42,804 bases of DNA from a virus (lineage: Duplodnaviria > Caudoviricetes): IMG/VR virus record IMGVR_UViG_3300042262_000097, positions 1-42,804 of that record; one strand, written 5' to 3'. This document shows positions 9,223 through 41,389 of this stretch, in pieces (within the stretch, counting starts at the first letter, position 1; every line of letters starts with the position of its first letter). The translations under genes were made by a program, and so were the position numbers. The notes under the pieces are model-generated. The model made no database searches and was not told the origin of the DNA. It worked only from the letters and a program-made list of their open reading frames with translations.

Positions 9223-11316
9223 GTGGTGAAGCCGATCCGCTTGACGCATGGCTGGCTGATACATCGTGGATGAGCGACCCGGCGCCGCCCCCGCGTGCTG
9301 TGGGCGCGGCGGCTCATAAGCCAGCGGCCCCCAAGAAGCCACCGGCCCGCCCCGTTGCAGGCAAGAAACCTGCCGCCCCGCAAAGCCCTGTCGACAAGCT
9401 GGCGGCCGAGCTGGACGCCGCGCCCATGGCGGCCGATCCGCAGGAACCGCCGGGCGCCGGGCTGGACCCGCCCGAGGATGCGCCGCAGCGCCCGCGTGGC
9501 GGCGACAGCGCCGGGCCTTCAGTCGGAGACGCCCCGCCGCCGCGCGGCCGGGAAAAGCGGCCCACCGGCGAAATCTGGAAGGGCTGCCCCGTCCGCCCGC
9601 TCGGGGTCAATGGCGGTGCCGCCTATTACCTGGACGTCCACGGCCAGATGCGGCCCATCGTCAAGCATGACGCGCAGTCGATCATGTCACTTTTCGGCAA
9701 GAAAATCCCATCGCTGTGCTTTGCCTTCCCCCAGTTTGACAAGGACGGCAACCGCAAGCCGCATCGGTTCGACCAGACCGGCGCGGCCATGGACATGATG
9801 GCCGCCGCATCGGAACGCGGGCTGTTTGACCCCGATGGATCGGTGCGCGGCGTCGGTGCATGGCGCGATGATGACGGGCAGCTGATCTATCACACCGGCG
9901 ACCGGCTGATATTGCCCGAGGGCGAGACGGACCCGCAGACCCATCACGGCCGCATCTATCCGGCCTACCCGCCGATCCCGCACCCGGCGCCGCCCGATCT
10001 GGCCGCCGATCCGGTGCCAGAGCTGCGCGCGCTTCTGGGCACATGGAACTGGGCGCGGCCCGACATTGATCCGATGATCTGTCTGGGCATGATCGGCATT
10101 CAGATGCTGGGCGGTGCGCTGGACTGGCGCCCGACCTTCTGGCTCACCGGCGCGCGCGCGTCCGGGAAATCGACCTTCCAGAAGTTGATCGAGCTGCTGC
10201 ATGGACCAAAAGGGCATGGTGCAATCGTCAGACGCGACCAAGAGCGGCATCACCGCGCGGCTGGGCCATTCCAGCCTGCCCGTCGGGCTGGACGAGCTGG
10301 AACCCGGTGACGAGGGCAGCGGCAAGGAAAAGGCGATCATTGATCTGGCCCGCATCGCATCCAGCGGTGGCCAGTGGTTTCGCGGCACGGCCGACCAGAA
10401 GGGCGCCAGCGGCAACGTCTACAGCGCCTTCATGTTTTCTTCGATCCTGATCCCCGGCGCCCTGAACGCCGCCGATCTGTCGCGCCTGATCATCCTCAGC
10501 CTCAATTCATTCGCCGAGGATGCCCCCGCGCCCCCACCCCTGCGGGCCGAAACATGGCGCAAGAGGGGCGCGGCCCTGAAGCGCATCCTCATGTCGCGCT
10601 GGTCCGGCTGGGCCGACCGGCTGGACCTCTGGCGCGAGGCGCTGGCGAAACACCGGATCACCGGACGGAATGCCGACAACTGGGCCACGATCCTCGCCAT
10701 GGCCGATATGGCGCAATCGGCCGACATGCCCACCGCCGCCGCGATGGACGGCTGGGCGCGCAAGGTGGCGCGATGGGTGGCCGCTGACCTGGGCGAGCTG
10801 GGGACGGATGCCGACGCCCTTGTCACCCGCCTGTTGACCCAGAAATTCGAGCCATTCAAGGGGCGCGAGGGCTACACCGTGGCGCAGTGGCTCATGGTGG
10901 CCGCTGCCCTGCCCGGCGCCCCGCCGATCCTTGGCAACGAGGGCGCCAACCAGAAAGACCCGGACGCCCTGCGCGACTATGCCCGCAAGGCCAACCTGAA
11001 GTTGGCGACCATCGGCCTGCGCGTGATCGGCGAAGGGCCGGAAGCCGCGCTATTTATTGCCAACAAGCCGGTGCAGGGCCTGCTGGACCTGTTCCGGGGC
11101 ACGGTATGGGCCGGAGGCGCGTGGAAGCAATCGGCTGCCCGCGTCAAGGGGGCCTATGTGGAAGATATTACCCGGACCCTTGCCGGTGTCGGCACGCGCG
11201 GCGTGAACATTCCATTCGCATCCATGCCCGGCCTGATCAGCGATCAGGACCGCGATGCCCGCGCGCAGGCCGCCGCAGCAGCCCCGATGCCCGAAGGTAT
11301 GGAGGATTTCGCATGA
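9219..11316 (+). pseudogene. Primase-associated P-loop helicase, split by a +1 frameshift at AAAA 10208-10211
   Basis: Walker A GARASGKST in ORF 9219-10310 and Walker B LPVGLDE in ORF 10201-11316; deleting one A gives a continuous ...LLHGPKGMVQSS... protein of 698 aa. Confidence 0.8.
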
Positions 11317-11441
11317 CGCGAGCCGCCCGTCTTTCTAGGCCCCTGAAATCCCCGGTTTCTTTGTGCTGGCCCGCACCCCGCAGGATGCCTATAATTCACA
11401 GGGCGGGATGCCCCCTTGGGCCTGCGGGTCAGGGGGGAAAC

Positions 11442-11728
11442 CACAACACCACAACGATTGGCCGAAGCGCCGTTGTGGAAAATGTTGTGAAAATCATCCA
11501 TAAAAATCAACGATTTAAGCCGTTTCACAACACCACAACGGCTTTCGCGCGCGCGTATGCGCGTCACGCGCGCGCGGCTATGCGCATGCGCCTGCGCGCG
11601 ATCACACGCGAGAGAGCGGCGTTGTGGCGTTGTATCGTTGTGGTTTTCTCTATCTGCCTGAAAAGAAAAGAGAAAATCATGGATATTTTCACAACGAAAT
11701 CCACAACGGGCCACAAAGCGGCGTTGTG
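11442..11728. repeat. Iteron-like CACAAC/GTTGTG array, putative replication origin
   Basis: 11 exact hexamers (11442, 11450, 11472, 11484, 11526, 11534, 11621, 11637, 11690, 11702, 11723) plus 2 variants, AT-rich patches, IHF consensus AATCAACGATTTA at 11505-11517. Confidence 0.7.
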
Positions 11729-11798
11729 GAAATCAACCGTCGCTGTCCGATATGACCGCAAGTCCCTGAAAACACTGCAAAAGGGGGGTTTTTGACCC

Positions 11799-12431
11799 AT
11801 GGCAAAGCCCAATTCCAAGTTTGATGAACTGGCCCGCGATGCCGCCGAGCGGATCGAGGCGGCGCGCGATGCCGGGCAGCAGCTCACCTTCCTGCCGGAC
11901 GAGCCTGCGCCGGGTGACAGCGAGCGGGCGAAGCGCGGCAAGGGCAAGGCTACGTCGCAGCTGCGCGACTGGTGCGCGGCGCGCGGCCTGCGGATGCCGG
12001 AAGATGTGCTGATCGAGATGGCGGGCATGGCCTCGACCGAAGACGCCTTTCTGACCGCCATGGCGCGCACCGAAGCGGTGCTGACGTGGGCCGAAGCGGG
12101 CGCGACGGGCTACAAGGGCAGCCCGTCCGCGCCCAGCACGGCGCAGCGGCTGGCGACGTTCCAGTTCATCTTCACGGCCCAGCTTCGGGCCGCCGAAGCT
12201 CTTCTGCCCTTCGGTCTGGGCAAGGTGACGCCGGATGTGGCGGTGACGCAGGCTGTCCAGGTGATAATGCCGGGCGCCGCGCCGCCTGCCAGCGGGCCGA
12301 TGACCGCCCGCGACGTGACGCCCAAGCCCGGCCAGATCGCCCCGCCGCCCATGCCGCACCAAATGCAGCAAAATCAAAAGGTTAGCAAAGGCGCGCCGCG
12401 CGATGCGGACGGCAATTCGCGGACGGAATAA
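11799..12431 (+). CDS. terS: Putative terminase small subunit
   Basis: 210-aa helical/basic protein immediately upstream of terL; positional call. Confidence 0.55.
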   Translation: MAKPNSKFDELARDAAERIEAARDAGQQLTFLPDEPAPGDSERAKRGKGKATSQLRDWCAARGLRMPEDVLIEMAGMASTEDAFLTAMARTEAVLTWAEAGATGYKGSPSAPSTAQRLATFQFIFTAQLRAAEALLPFGLGKVTPDVAVTQAVQVIMPGAAPPASGPMTARDVTPKPGQIAPPPMPHQMQQNQKVSKGAPRDADGNSRTE

Positions 12432-12657
12432 GCAACATGCGGAAATCATTGGAAAAATTCGGCACTTTCTGGTTGATCGAAAATCAACCGCCTCGCCCTG
12501 CCAGCCCCTCGGCCAGCGCCGTTCGGCAGGCCACCCCCCCTTTCGTGGCCCCCGTGAACGGATGCGGAACGCGACCCCGGGGGGGCATCCCGCGCGCAAT
12601 CTCGCTCCCCCGCTGTGTGACCCCATGCAGCCCTTTCGGGGCTTTGGAGGTTCGGGC

Positions 12658-14520
12658 ATGGGCGTGAAACCTTGGGAAGCCGAACGGGGTCAGGGGGTGC
12701 GGCCAGTCTTTGCCGCAGCGGGAGAGCCGCGCGCCACGGGTGGGGGGCTGTCTGAGGATCAGGTGGACCGCCTGCTTGGTCTGAACGCAAGCGAAGCGGT
12801 TGCCAGCCTAGACCTGCCGAATGCCGCTGACAAGATGCCCGATGCAGAGGGCGGCACCTTCCCCGGCCCCATCGCCGAAGCGATGTTCTGGGACGACGCC
12901 GATATTGTTGGCATTCAGGGGCCGGTCGGATCGGGCAAGACCACAACCACCCTGAAATCCCGCCTGCGCCGCGCGGTGATGATGCCCCGCAGCACGCGCG
13001 ATCTGTTCACCCCGGACGCGAGTGCCGAATTTGGCTGGCGCCCGCTGACCGAAGATGAACGCAAGGCCCAGCCCGATCTGCTGGCGCGCGGTGTGCCGGT
13101 TGCAGGTATCCGCCGGTATAAGCTGCTGGCCATTCGTGAAACCTACCGTCAGCTGTGGTCCACGACGATCCCCAGCTATCTGGAAACCTTCCCCAAGCAC
13201 TTCGGCGAGTGGTCAGGCGGCCGTGGCGATCCGGTGCGGCATGTCATGCGCTTTGACGACGGGTTGGGGCCTATCGAGTTCACAACCGAGTTCATGGCCT
13301 TCGGCGATGACGTCATTGCCGCCATGCGCGGCGTCCAGACCACCGACATCTGGCTGAACGAGGCTGACACCGTGCCGGTCGAGGTGCTGATTACCGGGAT
13401 CGGCCGGATTGACCGCTGGCCCGGCGCCTCGCATTTCGAGGGCTATCCCATCGAAATGCAGGGCTATGGGCAAATCGTCTGCGACTTCAACGCGCCGGAC
13501 GAGGAAAATTACACCTACGGCACCTTCCACGACGAAGCCAAGCGCGAGGAAATGGCCGAGGCGCTGAGCCGCGATCTGCCGGAAGGTGCCCGCCGCATCC
13601 GCATCACCTTCCACAACCAGCCGGGCTATGGCGAACCGGGGTGCGAGAACCTGCAAAACCTGTCGCCCAGCTACTACCCGCGCCAGATTGCCGCCATGCG
13701 GCTGAACGGGCGCGGCGATATGATCGACCGGCTGGTCTACAACAAGATCGTCTACCTGCGGGCGGGCGATCCGGTGTTCCGGCGCGAGTTCAACAAGCGC
13801 ATCCATGTGGCCGAGGCGCAGATCCCGGTGGAACAGGGCGTGCCGCTTCGCATCGGGCTTGACCAGGGCTTGCGCGGTGCCGCCGTGGTGGCGCAGTTCC
13901 TGCCGCCCTTCCACTGGCGCATCCTTGCCGAGCTGCATTTCCCCGATGCCCGCCTTCTGGCCGTGACCTTTGGCCAGCGGCTGACCGATCTGCTGGAAGG
14001 CCCGCGCTTTGCCGGGCATCGCGTGGAAGGCGGCTGGGGCGACATGGCGGGCGAACAGGGATCATCCTTGGCGGCCGATGAGAACGCCACCTGGAACAAG
14101 GCTGTGGGCACCGCCTGCGGCTTCCGTGTCCGGCCCCAGAAGATCGGCACCAACCGCATTCAGCCGCGGCTGGAAGCGGTGCGCGCGCCGCTGGAATTCA
14201 TGCACGGGGGCCAACCCGGCCTGTTGATCGACCCCGGTTGCAAGTTCCTGATCCGGGGTTTTCAGGCCCGCTATGTCTGGGCCGATGAAATCGACGCCTC
14301 GGGCGACAAGCGCAAGGTGCCGAACAAGAAACTGACCGAGGCCAATGTGATGGACGCGCTGCAATACCTGCTGCTGTCCGAAGGCAAGCCCTCGGGCCTT
14401 TCCAAATTCTCCTTCCCCGGCGCGGGCGCTGCCCCGTCGGAGCTGCCGCGCGGCCAAGGCCGCGCCCCTGCCGGTGGGCTGCAAACCGGCTTCGACGTGA
14501 CAAACCCTTATGGAGACTGA
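12658..14520 (+). CDS. terL: Terminase large subunit
   Basis: Walker A GPVGSGKT, WLNEAD, DFNAP coupling motif, nuclease IGLDQG...MDALQY; exact start uncertain. Confidence 0.9.
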   Translation: MGVKPWEAERGQGVRPVFAAAGEPRATGGGLSEDQVDRLLGLNASEAVASLDLPNAADKMPDAEGGTFPGPIAEAMFWDDADIVGIQGPVGSGKTTTTLKSRLRRAVMMPRSTRDLFTPDASAEFGWRPLTEDERKAQPDLLARGVPVAGIRRYKLLAIRETYRQLWSTTIPSYLETFPKHFGEWSGGRGDPVRHVMRFDDGLGPIEFTTEFMAFGDDVIAAMRGVQTTDIWLNEADTVPVEVLITGIGRIDRWPGASHFEGYPIEMQGYGQIVCDFNAPDEENYTYGTFHDEAKREEMAEALSRDLPEGARRIRITFHNQPGYGEPGCENLQNLSPSYYPRQIAAMRLNGRGDMIDRLVYNKIVYLRAGDPVFRREFNKRIHVAEAQIPVEQGVPLRIGLDQGLRGAAVVAQFLPPFHWRILAELHFPDARLLAVTFGQRLTDLLEGPRFAGHRVEGGWGDMAGEQGSSLAADENATWNKAVGTACGFRVRPQKIGTNRIQPRLEAVRAPLEFMHGGQPGLLIDPGCKFLIRGFQARYVWADEIDASGDKRKVPNKKLTEANVMDALQYLLLSEGKPSGLSKFSFPGAGAAPSELPRGQGRAPAGGLQTGFDVTNPYGD

Positions 14521-14524
14521 ACCG

Positions 14525-14722
14525 ATGAACCGACTGCTGAAATGGTTCCGCTTCGCGCATCTGCCGCAGCACCTGCAAGAGGTCAGCGCGCCCTGTGCCG
14601 AGCTGGCCACGAAGATGGACGAAGCCTTGCCCGAAAGCGCGGAAAAGACCGCCGGGATGCGCAAGCTGCTGGAAGCCAAAGACTGCTTCGTCCGCGCGAA
14701 GCTGGAAAGCATGGAGGGCTGA
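14525..14722 (+). CDS. Small helical-hairpin protein, possibly Acb2/Tad1-hairpin-like
   Basis: FxFxHLP.HLQEVS.P..ELA...LP..AEK.AGMRKLLEAKD..VRA; GGAG RBS; the link to the sponge family is recalled, not verified. Confidence 0.5.
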   Translation: MNRLLKWFRFAHLPQHLQEVSAPCAELATKMDEALPESAEKTAGMRKLLEAKDCFVRAKLESMEG

Positions 14723-14725
14723 CGA

Positions 14726-15016
14726 ATGGATTTCGGAGAAGCAATCCGCGCCCTGAAGGCCGGAAAAATGGTGGCCCGCGCGGGCTGGAACGGCAAGGGC
14801 ATGTGGCTGGCAATGACGCCCGGCAGCACCTTCCCCGCCTGCTACGCCAAAGACGGGCACGCGGCCAAACACCGCGCCGCCGAAGTTGGCAGCGAGGGCG
14901 AAATCACCCTGTTGCCGCATATCGACATGCGCGCGGCTGACGGCAGCATGGTCATCGGCTGGCTGGCAAGCCAGACCGACATGCTGGCGGAAGACTGGGA
15001 AGAAGTGGAGTTCTGA
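14726..15016 (+). CDS. tad2: Tad2-like (DUF2829) anti-defence nucleotide sponge
   Basis: Family signature MDFGEAIRALKAGKMVARAGWNGKGMWL...PHIDM...GWLASQTDMLAEDW. Confidence 0.85.
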   Translation: MDFGEAIRALKAGKMVARAGWNGKGMWLAMTPGSTFPACYAKDGHAAKHRAAEVGSEGEITLLPHIDMRAADGSMVIGWLASQTDMLAEDWEEVEF

Positions 15017-15018
15017 CC

Positions 15019-15312
15019 ATGCCCATGTTCCGTAAAAAGCCGGTCGTGATCGAGGCGCTTCACTACACCGGCGACAACGTGCTGGAAGCGCTTCACTACA
15101 CCGGCAAACACCCGAGCTGGGACAAGTGGTTCACCTCGGAAGAACAGTATGCCGCGCATGTTCGCGCCGACCGTGGTGCGTTTCGCATCATCACCCTTGA
15201 AGGCGTGATGGAGGCAATGCCCGGCGACTGGATCATCAAGGGCGTGCAGGGCGAGTTTTACCCCTGCAAGCCCGACATCTTCAACGCAACTTATGACCCG
15301 ATGGAGGGCTGA
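15019..15312 (+). CDS. Widespread phage protein (RKKPVVIEA...GEFYPCKPDIF family), candidate Acb4-like sponge
   Basis: FRKKPVVIEA, TLEG, PGDWIIKGVQGEFYPCKPDIFNATY; internal 18-bp duplication (15055-15072 / 15088-15105). Confidence 0.55.
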   Translation: MPMFRKKPVVIEALHYTGDNVLEALHYTGKHPSWDKWFTSEEQYAAHVRADRGAFRIITLEGVMEAMPGDWIIKGVQGEFYPCKPDIFNATYDPMEG

Positions 15313-15315
15313 CAC

Positions 15316-15831
15316 ATGGCCAAGACGAAACCCGATACCGCCGCCGAGGTCGAAGTGACCGAAACGGACATCCCCGAACTGGCCCCGGCCGAGGGGGTGA
15401 ATGCCCATGGCATCGGCCCCGACACCGACGGCGGGCCGAACCCGGATTACCAACCGGACACCCCGGACGATCCCGATGCGGATGTGCCGGGCGACGGCGA
15501 TCCGCTGGCCGATCCCGGCGCGGCCGATCCCGATACGGATGCGACGGGCGGCGGCGATCCGCTGGCCGATCCCGCCGAAAACGCGCCGGACTTCGCGCAG
15601 ATCGACGCGGCCCGCCTGCCCCGCCTGCTGGAAGCGGTTGCCGCCCGCAACACCGATGCCCACCGCGAAGCCCTGTGGGCCGAGCTGGAACGCGATCACG
15701 GCGCCAGCCTTGAAAACGGCCGGCTGTTCCTCGCGGGCGTCAGCGGTGCGGGCACCGGCACGGCGAAAAGCCTGCTGGACAACTGGGCCAACGCGGCACG
15801 CCGCAAGCTGATGGAGCTGGGCAATGTCTGA
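15316..15831 (+). CDS. Protein with acidic Asp/Pro-rich disordered N-terminus
   Basis: DTPDDPDADVPGDGDPLADP...; 23-bp repeat at 15495-15517 / 15552-15574; GGAGG RBS. Confidence 0.7.
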   Translation: MAKTKPDTAAEVEVTETDIPELAPAEGVNAHGIGPDTDGGPNPDYQPDTPDDPDADVPGDGDPLADPGAADPDTDATGGGDPLADPAENAPDFAQIDAARLPRLLEAVAARNTDAHREALWAELERDHGASLENGRLFLAGVSGAGTGTAKSLLDNWANAARRKLMELGNV

Positions 15832-16039
15832 AAGTCTGCATCTGGCCCCGTTTGACAAGACCAAGCGGATTGAACTCATCCCTGCATCGAATGGCGGATG
15901 GGTGGTTTCTGCGGTGCCCGACGATCCCCGCATGATGCACGGCATCATCGGCGCCTTCAGCAACAGTTACGACCTGCTGGTCGCGCTGACCAAGGCGCTC
16001 ACCCCGTCCGGTGATGACAAGGAGGCCCCCCATGTCTGA
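15824..16039 (+). CDS. Hypothetical protein
   Basis: 71 aa, IELIPASNGGWVV motif; overlaps both neighbours. Confidence 0.65.
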   Translation: MSESLHLAPFDKTKRIELIPASNGGWVVSAVPDDPRMMHGIIGAFSNSYDLLVALTKALTPSGDDKEAPHV

Positions 16040-16274
16040 CCCCAACACCGCGACCGCCGACGAAATCCGCCAGTTCGTCGAGCGAGTCGAGCAGCTGGAA
16101 AGCGAAAAGAAGGACATCGCCGACCAGATCAGCGAAACCTTCGCCGAAGCCAAGGGCCGGGGCTATGACGTCAAGGCGCTGCGCGCCATCATCGCCCTGC
16201 GCCGGAAGGACAAGGATCAGGTCGCCGAGGAAGAGGCCGTGCTTGAAATCTACAAGCAGGCGCTGGGGATGTGA
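16032..16274 (+). CDS. gapR: GapR / DUF2312 nucleoid-associated protein
   Basis: EIRQFVERVEQLESEKKDIADQI.E.FAEAKGRGYDVKALRAIIALR...LEIYKQALGM; AAGGAGG RBS. Confidence 0.92.
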   Translation: MSDPNTATADEIRQFVERVEQLESEKKDIADQISETFAEAKGRGYDVKALRAIIALRRKDKDQVAEEEAVLEIYKQALGM

Positions 16275-16810
16275 TGACCCTGCACCTCGCCCCCTTTGAA
16301 GACCTTGCCGCGAAAGTGGTTTTCGACCGGCTGGACGTGAACGACCATCTGGAATGCGAGCTTGTGCGCGGGCAACCCGCGACCTCGCTTGCGCTCTGGG
16401 CCGACTGGCGTTCGGTCGAGCCGTTGCGGCTGGCCTCTTTCGTGGTTCATGCGGGCGGGGTGCCCTTCGCTGTCTTCGGTCTGTCCCATACGGGGCAGGC
16501 CGGGGTCGCGGCGGCCGCCTTGCTGGCCCGCGATCATGCCCGTTTCCGCTTGCCGCTGGCGCGGCTGGCGCTGACCATCCGCCGCCACCTGCCCGCCTTC
16601 GCGGCTGAACGCGGCGTTCACCGGATCGAGGCGCGCAGCTGGGACGAACACCCCATGGCGCCACGCCTGTTGTGCGGTCTCGGGTTCCGCACCGAATGCC
16701 GGATGCCCGGATTTGGCTTGACCGGCGCCCATGTTTTCCGACAATGGGCGTGGCTGGCGGCCGAACACCCGCCCGCCCCTGTTTCCGCTTGCCAAGACCA
16801 CCGGGAATAG
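16274..16810 (+). CDS. GNAT-fold protein (T7 gp13-like)
   Basis: PFAVFG, HRIEARS..H..A.RLL..LGF..E C-terminal GNAT motif. Confidence 0.65.
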   Translation: MTLHLAPFEDLAAKVVFDRLDVNDHLECELVRGQPATSLALWADWRSVEPLRLASFVVHAGGVPFAVFGLSHTGQAGVAAAALLARDHARFRLPLARLALTIRRHLPAFAAERGVHRIEARSWDEHPMAPRLLCGLGFRTECRMPGFGLTGAHVFRQWAWLAAEHPPAPVSACQDHRE

Positions 16811-16820
16811 GAGCTACCCC

Positions 16821-17006
16821 ATGTGTTTCGTCAAAACGCCGAAGCCCCGCCCTGCCCAGGTGGCGGCTTACGACAACACCGAAGCGACCCAGCAGGCCGA
16901 CCTTGAAGCGGCCCTGCGCCGTCGCAGGCGCGGCGCTGCCGCCAATATCCTGACCGGGGCGTCAGGCATCCCGGCCACGCCGACACTGGGCGGGGTCGCA
17001 TCGTGA
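16821..17006 (+). CDS. Small virion protein (T7 gp6.7-like position and N-terminus)
   Basis: MCFVKTPKP...RRRRGAAANILTG...TLGG directly before the portal; AGGAG RBS. Confidence 0.65.
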   Translation: MCFVKTPKPRPAQVAAYDNTEATQQADLEAALRRRRRGAAANILTGASGIPATPTLGGVAS

Positions 17007-18664
17007 CCGCACTTTCCCCCGTTCTGGAAAAAGACCCGCGCGCCGAGCTGGCGGCGCGGCGCTGGTCCGAGCTGAAGACGGCGCGCAGCTGGCACGAACA
17101 TCTGTGGGAAGACATCGCCCGCCTGATGCGCCCCGGCCGGGGCGGCTTCGGGCTGGACGATCCGTCCGGCCGCACCATCGAAAAGCCGCTGTCTTCGGCC
17201 CCGATCCATGCAAACGACAATTTCGCGGCCGGGCTTTACGGCACTCTGACCAATCCGGCAAACCGCTGGTTTGGGTTCAAGACGAACGACGGCGACCTGA
17301 ATGCCTGGCACGATGCCCGGCTGTGGCTGGATCATGTGACCGACCGGGTTCTGGCCTCTTTCGGCCCCTCGGTCAGCCCGTTCTATTCGGCGACCACACA
17401 GGTGTTTTCCGACCTGTCCAGCTTCGGCAATGGTGCGCAGTATGACGAAGTGGTGTTGTCGGAACGCCGTATCCTCGACGTCACCCTGTCGCTGGCCGAA
17501 GTGGTTTTTGAAATCGACGGCTTTGGCCGCGTCTGCGAAGTGGTGCGCAAGTTCAGCCAGACCCCCGCGCAAGCCATGTCGATGTTCAAGGGCAAGAACC
17601 TGCCGCCCAAGCTGGTGGAAATGGCCGAGAAGGGCGACAGTTCCAAAGTCACCTTCTACCACCACGTCCTGAAAAACGATGACTGGCGCCCGCTTTACAA
17701 GCTGGGCCTGCGGGGCAAGGCATGGATCAGCCGCTATGCCTGCGAAATCGCGGGCACGCTGGTATCGGAAAGCGGCTATGACGAAATGCCGTTCTTCGCC
17801 CCGCGCTGGCAGGTGGACAGCGGGCAGACCTATGGCCTTGGCCCCGGTTTCACCGCCCTGCCCTCTGCCCGCGCCTTGCAGCGGATGGAGGATGCCACGT
17901 TGCGCGCCGCACAGCGCGCCGCCGATCCCACCCTGCTGGCCCCCGACCGGCAGGATTTCCCGCTGAACGGCCGCATCCGCCCCGGTGAAGTGGTCTATGG
18001 CGCGGTCGATACGCAGGGCCGCGCGCTGTTGCGTCCGCTGGATATGTCGGGCGGCATGAACCTGACCTTGCAGGAGCGTCAGCAGAAAATGGAAGAGATC
18101 CGCGACGCCTTCCATTACACGCTGATGAACCTTGCAGGCCGCACCGGCATGACGGCGACCGAGGTCATGGCGATCACGGAAGAACGGCAACGCCTCTGGG
18201 CGCCGCATCAGGGCCGTGTGCAGGAAGAATTTCTGGCGCCGAAGATCAGCCGCAGGTTCTCGCTGTTGTGGCGCGCGGGCCAGATCAGGCCGCCGCCGCC
18301 GGAAATGGCCGGGGCAGAGCTTCAGGTGGAATACCAGTCCGCCGCCGCCGCCGCACAGCGCAGCGTGGAAGGCAATGCCGTTCTGCGCATCATTCAGGAC
18401 GTGGCGCCGCTCATCCCAATCACCCCGCGCATTGCCGAACGGTTCGACCCGGACGGGCTTTTGGAAACCCTGATCGACGCGCGCGGCGCCCCGGCCCGTG
18501 CCTTCCGGTCGCGCGAAGCTGCCGACCAGATCGCGGCCCAGCGGCAACAGCAGGAACAAGCCATGATGATGATGCAGGCGGCGCAGGCCGGTGCCGGTGT
18601 GCTGAAGGACGCCGCCGGGGCCGAAGCCGCCCTGGCGCAATCTGCCGGGGGTGCCCCGCAATGA
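17003..18664 (+). CDS. Portal protein (podovirus head-tail connector)
   Basis: 553 aa; LTNPANRWF, DLSSFGNG, PRW...YGLGPG, MTATEV motifs of the T7 gp8/BPP-1-like family. Confidence 0.93.
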   Translation: MTALSPVLEKDPRAELAARRWSELKTARSWHEHLWEDIARLMRPGRGGFGLDDPSGRTIEKPLSSAPIHANDNFAAGLYGTLTNPANRWFGFKTNDGDLNAWHDARLWLDHVTDRVLASFGPSVSPFYSATTQVFSDLSSFGNGAQYDEVVLSERRILDVTLSLAEVVFEIDGFGRVCEVVRKFSQTPAQAMSMFKGKNLPPKLVEMAEKGDSSKVTFYHHVLKNDDWRPLYKLGLRGKAWISRYACEIAGTLVSESGYDEMPFFAPRWQVDSGQTYGLGPGFTALPSARALQRMEDATLRAAQRAADPTLLAPDRQDFPLNGRIRPGEVVYGAVDTQGRALLRPLDMSGGMNLTLQERQQKMEEIRDAFHYTLMNLAGRTGMTATEVMAITEERQRLWAPHQGRVQEEFLAPKISRRFSLLWRAGQIRPPPPEMAGAELQVEYQSAAAAAQRSVEGNAVLRIIQDVAPLIPITPRIAERFDPDGLLETLIDARGAPARAFRSREAADQIAAQRQQQEQAMMMMQAAQAGAGVLKDAAGAEAALAQSAGGAPQ

Positions 18665-18948
18665 TCTGGAACATACCGAGCGTCTTCCAGACCGTCTTTC
18701 CGTCGAAAGCCATGCAGGCCGCCCGCCTTGCCTCACGCCGCTGGCGCAAGGCTTTCGCCGATGAACCCGAACTGCGCGCCGATCTGATCCGCTTGGGCGG
18801 TGTGCTGACCATGAACCCGCCGCAGGGCGTGACAGCCGAGCAACTGGCCTATGAGGCCGGGCGCCGCGACTTCGCCCTGCAAATCCTCGCCCTTGGGGGC
18901 ATTTCGCCCTTCGACCTCAACCGCATGATGGAAGATCCCGATGCGTAA
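18661..18948 (+). CDS. Bbp19-like small protein
   Basis: AYEAGRRDFALQI motif, between portal and scaffold. Confidence 0.65.
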   Translation: MIWNIPSVFQTVFPSKAMQAARLASRRWRKAFADEPELRADLIRLGGVLTMNPPQGVTAEQLAYEAGRRDFALQILALGGISPFDLNRMMEDPDA

Positions 18949-19891
18949 TCTGCTTTTCCCCCTGATCCTGCGTCTGCCGCTCTTTGAGGCCCCGGACGGT
19001 GGCGCTGGCGGCACCCCGCCCGCCGATCCCCCGCCCGCCAATCCCCCGGCCGATCCGTCTGCGCCCCCCGCCGCGAAATGGTGGCAGGGCAGCGATTTCA
19101 CCGCCGAGGAACAGCAATGGCTGGCCGCGCGCGGGCTGACCGAAGATGACATGACCGCCGTCATGCCCAAGCTGGTGAAGGGCCACCGCGCCGCCGAACA
19201 GCGGATCGGCAAAGGCCTTGACAACATCATGGACCGCCCGGCCAAGGATCAGAAATTCGCCGACTGGGCGCGCGCCAATGCCGCCGCGCTTGGCCTGCCC
19301 GACAAGGAAGACGGCTATGCCGTCGAGCCGCCGAAGGACTGGCCCAAGGGCATGGAATGGAACGCCGGTCTGGAAGCGCAGGCCCGCAAGCTGGCCTTTG
19401 ACATGGGTGTGCCGCCCGAGGCCCATCAGGCATATGTCGGCATGTTCGCCGCCGAAATGCGCCGTGTGTCCGAAGCCGCCACCGCCGACTTTTCGGCCGC
19501 GCAAGCGCAGATGATGACCGATCTGCAAAAGGACTATGGCGACCAGACCCCGGCCGTGCTGACCCGCGCCCGGCAGGCGGCCAGCATGGTGGCTGAAAAG
19601 GCCGGGATTTCCGGCGAGGGGCTGGAAGCCCTGACCGGGCTGCTGGCCGACAAGCTGGGTGATGCTGGCGTGATCCGCATGTTCAACGCCATCGGTGAGC
19701 TGGGCGGCGAAGATGTGCTGGTTGGCCGGGGGGATGGCCTCTCGATGACCCCCGCAGAAGCCCGCGCCGAAATCGCCAAGATGTCGGCCCCCGGCGGCGA
19801 CTGGTATCAGGCCAGCGCCACAGGCAACCGCGCCAAGATGAAAGAGCTTCAGCCGCGCATGGATTTCCTGTCGAAACTCGCGGCGCGCTGA
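18941..19891 (+). CDS. Capsid scaffolding protein
   Basis: Pro-rich N-terminus, LGLPDK..GY, LQKDYG, IGELGGED; located between portal and capsid. Confidence 0.75.
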   Translation: MRNLLFPLILRLPLFEAPDGGAGGTPPADPPPANPPADPSAPPAAKWWQGSDFTAEEQQWLAARGLTEDDMTAVMPKLVKGHRAAEQRIGKGLDNIMDRPAKDQKFADWARANAAALGLPDKEDGYAVEPPKDWPKGMEWNAGLEAQARKLAFDMGVPPEAHQAYVGMFAAEMRRVSEAATADFSAAQAQMMTDLQKDYGDQTPAVLTRARQAASMVAEKAGISGEGLEALTGLLADKLGDAGVIRMFNAIGELGGEDVLVGRGDGLSMTPAEARAEIAKMSAPGGDWYQASATGNRAKMKELQPRMDFLSKLAAR

Positions 19892-39858: not shown

Positions 39859-40734
39859 TTAGAAGGCGGCTGCGGGGATGCCCACAAGGGGCGCGTCGGG
39901 GTCGATACCCGCAGCGGTGCAGGCTTGGCGCATGGTAGCCCCTGCGGCGACCCGCAGCACGGCTACAGGCGGGAAATCGGGCCGTCCTGCCCCTGCCAGC
40001 CAAGCGACGTGCTGCGCCCTGTCCGCAAGCCGTTGCTGGCCCAAGGGTTCGCCCCATGTGGGCACATAGCCCGGCGCTAGGGTGAACAGGAGCAGACAGC
40101 CCGCAGGCGCTTCCGGCGGCACGTCGTCAAGCCCGACCGTGACCAATTCCCCGAACGGCCCCCGAAGGACCAAGTCGCCCTTGGGGCTGCGGTCGTTCTG
40201 CGACGAAGCTGCAAGCCATGCGGCGATTTCGGCTGCGGCGGTCATTGACCTTCCCCCAAGATACGCCCAAAGTTCGGCAAGCCTTTCGTTGCAATCAATG
40301 ATTGGGCCGGGGCGATGAACGTCGCCCGTCATGGTCATGTATCGACCCGACGAATAGATTTCGACTTGCTTCGTCTTTCGCCCCTTGGGAACGAAACCCT
40401 TGACGACGATATGCAAACCGCGACCGCTTGGGCTGATTTCGGCATAGCCGGGGAACTGTTCTAGGACAGCCCTTTGCAGTTCGGTCGGTTCTTCGCCGGG
40501 CTTTACGTCAAGGTCAATCAACGTGTAGGGGTCGCGTTCGGTCAGAACGAAGCCGATGCCTGCGACCCTGCCAGCGGCATACAGTTCACAAGCCTGTTCG
40601 AACGTCCCCCAAGTCGTCGGGTCGGTCGAAGACGCCAAGTGCAGGGTGTGAGGGTTGACAGGCTCTTTCGCTTGGTTGCGACAAACCCATTGGTCAAAGT
40701 CTTTCAGTTCTTGCGGGATATTCTGCGGGTTCAT
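39859..40734 (-). CDS. AEP-family primase-polymerase domain protein
   Basis: IPQELK..DQWV, STDPTTW, GIGFVL, IDLD, YAEISPSGRGLH, EIYSSGRY.T.TG. Confidence 0.82.
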   Translation of the reverse strand: MNPQNIPQELKDFDQWVCRNQAKEPVNPHTLHLASSTDPTTWGTFEQACELYAAGRVAGIGFVLTERDPYTLIDLDVKPGEEPTELQRAVLEQFPGYAEISPSGRGLHIVVKGFVPKGRKTKQVEIYSSGRYMTMTGDVHRPGPIIDCNERLAELWAYLGGRSMTAAAEIAAWLAASSQNDRSPKGDLVLRGPFGELVTVGLDDVPPEAPAGCLLLFTLAPGYVPTWGEPLGQQRLADRAQHVAWLAGAGRPDFPPVAVLRVAAGATMRQACTAAGIDPDAPLVGIPAAAF

Positions 40735-40780
40735 CTTCGGCCTGTTAGTAGCGCATGAGTAAAGCAGGCACATTGCGCCC

Positions 40781-41389
40781 TTCCGGCACCCGATCTGGAC
40801 GGGGTGCAGGTCAACGTCGCGGCGCCATGAGCGCGGCAACATCGTAGAGGCGGATGGGCTCTACTGGGGGCCAATCCTGGCTGGCTACAGCGGCGTCCGG
40901 CGGGAGGAAGTTCTCGGGCTGGAACCCCGTGATGTCGTGTCCGTCGACGGAATTCCCTGCTTTCACATCCGCGACAACATGCACTGCGGGGTCAAGACCT
41001 TCAGCACGGAGCGCCTGGTTCACATCCACGAGCACCTGATCGAGCTGGGCTTTCTCAAACATGTTGAAGATATGCGTCAGCGAGGCGCCTCGGCCCTCTT
41101 CCCCGAGTTGATCGCGACAAATGAGAGCCAGTCCTTCGGTGACAAGATCTATTACAACTGGGCGAAGGCGTTGGTGCTACAGCTGGACGGCAACCCGAGG
41201 GAGCTCTGCTTCCACTCGTTCCGCCATTATGCCATCGCCCACCTGAAGGAGTTGCCCGAGGTCAGCGAGAAGCAGCGCCGTGACCTAGTCGGGCACAGCG
41301 GCGGTGACGTGCATGACGAGCAATATGATGTCGCCACGTCGATGACCGTGATGAGTGGCGTGGTCGCGAAGCTGCCGCGATTGTTCTGA
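40781..41389 (+). pseudogene. 5'-truncated tyrosine integrase (catalytic domain only)
   Basis: FRHPIWTGC...YWGPILAGYSGVRREE...VKT...FHSFRH...LVGH...YD; in-frame stop just upstream, no N-terminal domains. Confidence 0.85.

Follow-up and report, generated by a model that had tools for sequence, protein, structure and literature searches.

A putative counter-defence cassette with a Tad2-family sponge in a gene-swapping slot behind a phage terminase gene

The 42,804-base virus record IMGVR_UViG_3300042262_000097 of IMG/VR (completeness rating 100%), analysed here over its whole length and referred to as the window, carries three small genes directly behind terL, the gene for the terminase large subunit. 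We interpret these genes as an accessory cassette for counter-defence, sitting at a position where genes are swapped: a Tad2-family sponge, predicted to act against 3'cADPR, together with two orphan families, at least one of which likely sequesters a different immune nucleotide. We consider this interpretation probable. It is carried by the assignment of the middle gene to Tad2 with its pocket residues intact, by the turnover of the slot in related phages, and by fusions that join each orphan family to domains of verified sponges.

The Tad2 gene and the slot behind terL

All genes of the cassette lie on the + strand. Gene 1 (14525–14722) encodes a helical-hairpin protein of 65 residues from a divergent family that appears Acb2/Tad1-like, the middle gene (14726–15016) a Tad2-family protein of 96 residues, and gene 3 (15019–15312) a protein of 97 residues from the PHROG 419/1810 family, with an SH3-like core and a weak likeness to PGDYG (PF14083); genes 1 and 3 are candidate sponges. 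Four base pairs separate the terL stop (14520) from gene 1, followed by gaps of 3, 2 and 3 bp up to the next gene at 15316, and a GGAG motif lies a few bases 5' of all three starts, within the end of the preceding gene. The initial annotation had described three genes of 65–97 residues, spaced 2–4 bp apart and each with a sequence like a ribosome-binding site (RBS), and the reading frames, gaps, GGAG sites and quoted motifs are all present. Since all three proteins fall in large phage families (PHROG 1761/5120 for gene 1, 1048/872 for the middle gene and 419/1810/4502 for gene 3), they are real genes and not chance open reading frames. Their GC content at third codon positions (0.78–0.83) equals that of terL, portal and capsid genes (0.80–0.81), so that composition gives no hint of a foreign origin.

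The middle gene matches PF11195 over the entire model (1–73 of 73) with 91.1 bits against a cut-off of 25 (E 7e-26), and the structures of SptTad2 and HgmTad2 at E 2e-19, which confirms its earlier assignment to the DUF2829/Tad2 family. The gcADPR pocket of HgmTad2 comprises W21, N22, S90, T92 and D93 (PMC10680739; published work is cited here and below from parts of the papers), and in the alignment to the matched structure all five residues are kept, as W21, N22, S82, T84 and D85. In contrast, dinucleotide binding by HgmTad2 needs R31, S47, F70 and N85 in its insertion domain (PMC10680739), and none of these four tested residues is kept in the middle gene, where T31, a gap, L62 and I77 replace them. 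With the Tad2 family (SptTad2, 8WJD; HgmTad2/AcrIIA7, 8KBI–8KBM; SPO1 Tad2; ModTad2) the middle gene shares the full-length domain, the five gcADPR residues and the beta2–beta5 insertion, which spans about 33 residues here, compared with 41 in HgmTad2 and 24 in SPO1 Tad2. Among the assayed homologues in the available part of the table of Hadary et al. (PMC12393519), Tad2_70 and Tad2_83 are seemingly the closest, with a hand-counted identity to the middle gene of about one half. Type I Thoeris is inhibited by both in plaque assays, and the two Pycsar systems by Tad2_70 as well. Because the gcADPR pocket is kept, the dinucleotide residues are lost and these homologues block type I Thoeris, the middle gene is predicted most likely to bind the Thoeris signal 3'cADPR and probably not to bind c-di-GMP or cGAMP. 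It possibly also binds cUMP/cCMP, as Tad2_70 does. By analogy, it would form a tetramer that blocks Thoeris through gcADPR binding.

To place the cassette among related phages, the region from terL to the conserved downstream genes was surveyed in 28 related terL loci besides one contig identical to the window; 21 of these loci are distinct. From the terL tree, the relatives' rows and identities were used and the window row was excluded. The far side of the slot is marked by the C-terminal domain of gene 4 (15316–15831, +), which is found in relatives whether or not they carry the cassette and was identified by tblastn in close relatives and by eye in the remaining ones. Across the 21 distinct loci, the slot holds Tad2 in three (one of them cut by a contig end), Acb4 in one (L169; PF13876, E 3e-29), Acb2 in one (PF24729, E 6e-11), gene 1 in three, gene 3 in two, other genes only in five, and nothing beyond gene 4 in seven. 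One locus holds both gene 1 and Tad2, and in the two gene 3 loci this gene lies behind gene 4. A known sponge (Tad2, Acb2 or Acb4) is therefore present in the slot of 5 of the 21 lineages, while the exact trio, among the loci surveyed, is confined to the window and the identical contig. In the 800 bases that lead up to the start codon, loci L163 and L164 agree at 781, and past this point L163 reads gene 1 and L164 Tad2; L168, which is empty, and L265, which carries Tad2, are 94% identical in the C-terminal part of terL. Because these pairs are near-identical in terL yet differ in slot content, the turnover is recent, and the slot is a hotspot at which genes are swapped. Its breakpoints fall at GGAG-stop-ATG junctions, and the last codons of terL (12403–14520, +; phrog_2, true start uncertain) supply the GGAG of whichever gene comes next.

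Within the window, the GGAG-stop-ATG junction with its gap of 2–4 bp recurs at 14505–14527, 14711–14729, 15005–15021 and 15301–15319, the ends of terL, gene 1, Tad2 and gene 3. Junctions mostly overlap among 20 other gene ends inspected, and the pattern was chosen post hoc. An exact 13-bp repeat made up of RBS and stop stands at the ends of gene 1 (14711–14723, +) and gene 3 (15301–15313, +), and recombination between the two copies would yield the gene 1-to-gene 4 order of L163. A promoter and terminator scan of 11000–19000, a weak test, stayed at chance level, with none of its sites in the stretch from terS to the cassette.

Further orphan genes occur in the slot of relatives. A helical family of 80 residues with no significant Pfam match occupies it in three lineages (L173:7887-8120, L178:2684-2926 and L182:827-1069; also L179, L267 and L269), with gene 1 as its neighbour in one case and Acb2 in another, and is a further anti-defence candidate. 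Another orphan family, about 115 residues long and likely coiled-coil, lies directly behind terL in two lineages (L174:7393-7749 and L175:1789-2127). The DHH/DHHA1 phosphoesterase and MazG-like genes of the slot (L177:7943-10228, L182:1718-2161 and L270:6961-7404) are possible signal- or nucleotide-degrading enzymes, and L177 may also encode a very distant gene 3-like protein, judged by eye.

The trio had been placed between terL and the portal gene. It does stand directly behind terL; the portal or head–tail connector gene (17003–18664, +; PF12236, E 6e-99) does not adjoin it, since five open reading frames separate the two (15316 to 17003). A GapR-like DNA-binding gene (PF10073) at 16011–16274 belongs to the same variable region and is found there in only some relatives. 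Elsewhere, the window encodes an integrase, a repressor, an internal virion protein, a tail spike and an endolysin, and the integrase, repressor, portal, internal virion protein and tail spike together indicate a phage that is temperate and probably has a short tail. Its terL has relatives in assemblies of Meridianimarinicoccus, Roseobacter and Paracoccaceae in four of six genome matches, the others being labelled Alphaproteobacteria and Rhodoferax, and we take the putative host group from these assemblies. Near the right end, past the lysis genes, a second primase-like open reading frame (39859–40842, −) lies beside a low-GC stretch at 39–40 kb.

Two orphan families in a network of sponge fusions

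The gene 1 family comprises 2,111 clusters, and 6,169 at the 50% identity level. Its AlphaFold model (predicted local distance difference test score 96) consists of a short helix and a two-helix antiparallel hairpin (residues 15–34 and 39–64). The hairpin is a common fold. A search of BFVD by fold returned six close matches (36–44% identity), and 12 of the 44 rows listed after these carry the name of an Acb2/Tad1 hairpin protein, the best of them, among the 50 rows listed, with a template modelling (TM) score of 0.71 and E 0.025. PF24729, the Acb2/Tad1 hairpin superfamily, is the Atlas lead for gene 1 (at 18%) and is matched weakly by 16 of 112 gene 1 homologues (best E 0.029); gene 1 itself has no Pfam match at E<=1 and so lies below the PF24729 cut-off. 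Searches of solved structures by sequence and profile gave nothing significant for gene 1, and generic hairpins fill the lists when the PDB is searched with Foldseek and VIA, with no solved Acb2/Tad1 structure among the matches listed.

The polar residues H12, E40, K41, R46, E50, K52, D53 and R57 are invariant in the gene 1 family. Acb2 contacts dinucleotides through Y11 and K26 and trinucleotides through R67 and T74 (PMC10312549). By hand inspection, gene 1 has no lysine 15 residues after its N-terminal aromatic residue, the spacing of Y11 and K26 in Acb2. MAFFT places gene 1 R46 on the trinucleotide-binding arginine of Acb2 helix 2 and D53 on the threonine, a register to which one seven residues off is equally plausible by eye. 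The profile comparisons described below leave homology of gene 1 to Acb2/Tad1 plausible but unproven. In the screen of Tal et al. (PMC12265669), eight members of the gene 1 family, which we located in the supplement by motif and which do not include the window protein, were among 124 candidates chosen as pocket-bearing sponge candidates; seven were predicted to assemble as hexamers and one as a dimer or hexamer. Gene 1 shares with the Acb2/Tad1 hairpins two long antiparallel helices, a hexamer predicted for family members and the nearest named BFVD folds, and differs from them in its own invariant set (H12, K41, R46, K52 and D53).

Fusions connect this family to sponges. Among 51 longer relatives scanned (of 150 listed), gene 1 is fused to Sequestin in three, to PF24729 in one and to WDGH in one. 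The Sequestin table of Tal et al. contains the gene 1 motif 22 times, and the two rows examined are both fusions; the available homologue tables of Hadary et al. contain it once, on the Tad1 sheet, as part of a fused protein. In other phages, gene 1 and gene 3 domains are joined in one protein, and gene 1 domains also form tandem duplicates (proteins P0451, P0401, P0489 and P0362–P0365; locus L069).

With at least 7,998 clusters at 90% identity, the gene 3 family is among the most abundant orphan small-protein families of phages. Gene 3 scores 12.9 bits against PGDYG (PF14083), below the cut-off of 27; the Atlas also gives PGDYG as a lead, and 51 of 112 homologues match it weakly (best E 7.5e-4). 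Searches of solved structures by sequence and profile gave nothing significant for gene 3, and its best PDB matches with Foldseek and VIA are weak SH3/Tudor-like chains, with Acb4 not among the matches listed. Below significance, Foldseek lists three Tad2 chains (TM about 0.27) and VIA lists none, and the hhalign probability between gene 3 and Tad2 is 0.4%. Neither gene 1 nor gene 3 matches Sequestin (PF21825) in Pfam or with a narrow profile. Inside gene 3, a 28-bp near-duplicate at 33-bp spacing (15045–15105) makes two successive peptide stretches alike; the length of the protein equals that of its homologues.

The initial annotation had related gene 3 to Acb4 (PF13876; SPO1 gp1.3, PDB 9E4W). 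We reject this identity: PF13876 is matched at E<=1 by none of the 112 homologues, the hhalign probability is 1.35% over 13 columns, and in fusions the two are separate domains. The proteins are similar in size, and Acb4 occupies the same slot in relative L169, yet no sequence or profile similarity between them is detectable. Frequent fusion of gene 3 to Acb4 may be the source of the earlier association. Among 120 long gene 3 forms, eight carry a sponge domain (Acb4 in four, Tad2 in three, one of which also has Sequestin, and PF24729 in one), and these make up 8 of the 13 long proteins with any further Pfam domain. Two gene 3–Tad2 fusions are 66–73% identical to both window proteins, and gene 3 is also fused to Lockin. 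Gene 3 is fused to, or lies within 600 bp on the same strand of, 10 of 184 known-sponge loci, compared with none in a 3.6-fold larger outer zone (p 2e-7). Through such fusions, the families of genes 1 and 3 are linked with Tad2, Acb4 and Sequestin in a single network. Sequestin (PF21825), a fusion partner of both genes, and Lockin, a partner of gene 3, are described in PMC12265669, and the fusion logic applied to them there makes genes 1 and 3 sponge candidates.

Competing readings of genes 1 and 3

Several observations weigh against a cassette of sponges. For gene 1, hhalign comparisons with one Acb2 clade and with a nine-sequence PF24729-type alignment are no better than reversed or shuffled controls. 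In the screen of Tal et al. (PMC12265669), members of its family gave culture collapse in 0 of 37 transformed protein-by-system combinations (of 40), namely 7 with Thoeris I, 8 with Thoeris II, 8 with cGAMP CBASS, 6 with cCMP Pycsar and 8 with cUMP Pycsar. Gene 1 is near none of the 184 known-sponge loci, and a known sponge lies within 600 bp at only 3 of 41 non-redundant gene 1 loci; the Acb2 and Sequestin profiles used for these counts are narrow and undercount. As for gene 3, a sponge Pfam domain is absent from 112 of the 120 long forms, three have a dATP/dGTP pyrophosphohydrolase and two DUF551, and a seven-member cluster appears MazG-like by eye, so that fusion is promiscuous. A known sponge adjoins only 1 of 75 gene 3-anchored loci, the net charge of the protein is −4, and the Tad2 anchor loci are not independent, because they were chosen by similarity to the window Tad2. 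Adjacency is moreover not specific to sponges, since a GapR-like gene lies near Acb2 at 4 of 53 loci. The slot also holds helix-turn-helix, MazG-like, DHH and membrane-type genes, and exact 13-mers recur within 1 kb at about 14 places in the window, so the 13-bp repeat is not rare.

The initial annotation is supported in part on this evidence. The likening of gene 1 to the Acb2/Tad1 hairpin stands at the level of the fold (model, BFVD neighbours and weakly matching homologues), and fails at the PF24729 cut-off, in the profile comparison and in the screen of eight family members, which are inactive against 3'3'-cGAMP CBASS and Thoeris I/II. Enrichment near known sponges is found for gene 3, and neighbourhood support for gene 1 is modest. 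The putative multi-signal counter-defence cassette is supported by synteny and fusions. Tal et al. remark that negatives of their screen may bind signals outside the tested panel (PMC12265669), and the ligand of gene 1, if it has one, is probably something other than 3'cADPR, His-ADPR, 3'3'-cGAMP, cCMP and cUMP. On balance, we lean towards gene 1 being a sponge, whereas a sponge of a new SH3-like fold is a tentative assignment for gene 3, somewhat short of an even chance.

Among the alternatives, Tad2 could be the only sponge, with genes 1 and 3 being general accessory modules, such as nucleotide-pool or housekeeping nucleotide binders, that travel via a permissive slot and mosaic proteins. 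The negative screen of the gene 1 family, the fusion of gene 3 to pyrophosphohydrolases and many unknown domains, the use of the slot by non-sponge genes and the clustering of GapR with Acb2 all fit this explanation. It nevertheless seems unlikely to us: sponge domains predominate among the Pfam-annotated partners of gene 3, gene 1 combines an Acb2/Tad1-like fold with Sequestin fusions, and Sequestin was itself discovered through fusion to sponges (PMC12265669). Quite unlikely is anti-defence by protein binding, in which gene 3, and possibly gene 1, would engage a defence protein through an SH3/Tudor-like surface, as Tad3–Tad8 bind Thoeris proteins. Modulation of host housekeeping messengers such as c-di-GMP, rather than of immunity, is very improbable: the closest solved relatives of the middle gene, HgmTad2 and SptTad2, co-purify with c-di-GMP (PMC10680739), but the residues required for that binding are the four replaced in the window protein.

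Under the cassette reading, which we prefer, the trio would be co-transcribed with terS–terL and the head genes, as gene spacing suggests. Sponge oligomers would build up once a prophage is induced or an infection reaches its late phase, at the time when late proteins set off signalling. Head and packaging proteins are triggers of signalling immunity. For type I Thoeris, the capsid has been described as the trigger (PMC13251945). Tad2 would remove the Thoeris signal, and gene 1 and perhaps gene 3 would remove other signals. Gene 1 is envisaged as an Acb2-like hexamer with a pocket built from H12, K41, R46, K52 and D53, and its ligand, outside the panel of Tal et al., would most likely be a cyclic trinucleotide or another untested CBASS- or Thoeris-type signal. 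Genes may enter and leave the slot by short-homology recombination at the GGAG-stop-ATG junctions. The strongest version, in which all three are sponges, gene 3 founding a new SH3-like sponge family and gene 1 being an Acb2-fold hexamer for a signal in no current panel, is doubtful.

Relation to known sponge clusters

The Tad2 sponge and sponge clusters in variable slots are known, the latter from N4-like phages (PMC13251945) and the acb4 cluster of SPO1 (PMC11722364); the two orphan families are the candidate new part. The N4-like anti-signalling hotspot (Ab09 gp59-61; PMC13251945) is likewise a variable locus between conserved core genes, and it collects Tad2, Acb4, Sequestin and uncharacterised inhibitors. 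It differs in lying between the primase-polymerase and virion RNA polymerase genes, whereas the present slot is directly behind terL of a phage that appears temperate and holds other orphan families. Relatives of this phage occur in Paracoccaceae/Roseobacteraceae genomes.

Seven phage sponge families are listed as verified in a review of October 2026 (PMC13712596), and the families of genes 1 and 3 are not named among them in its available part; the N4 hotspot preprint adds a RyR-like family (PMC13251945). Neither family is mentioned in the accessible portions of PMC13243611 and PMC13728456, and the gene 3 family is not described in the main text of the sponge papers available to us, nor does its motif match in the available tables of the Tal et al. 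screen. PGDYG returned nothing in the literature, and literature under PF14083, phrog 419/1761 and PF24729 mentions only PF24729 cassettes in mycobacteriophages. Literature on Sequestin, fusions, terminase and Kongming, judged from listings, describes neither family. The supplements of Chang et al. gave no motif match even for Tad2 and are uninformative.

New sponge families have previously been found by the same route, through fusion to and clustering with known sponges, and the two families flagged here comprise thousands of proteins. The terL slot also offers further orphan genes as candidates. The gene 1 family, a predicted sponge that is negative for five signals, lends itself to fishing for an immune nucleotide that is either untested or new; if gene 1 is indeed a sponge for a signal in no current panel, purifying what it carries would bring to light a new bacterial second messenger.
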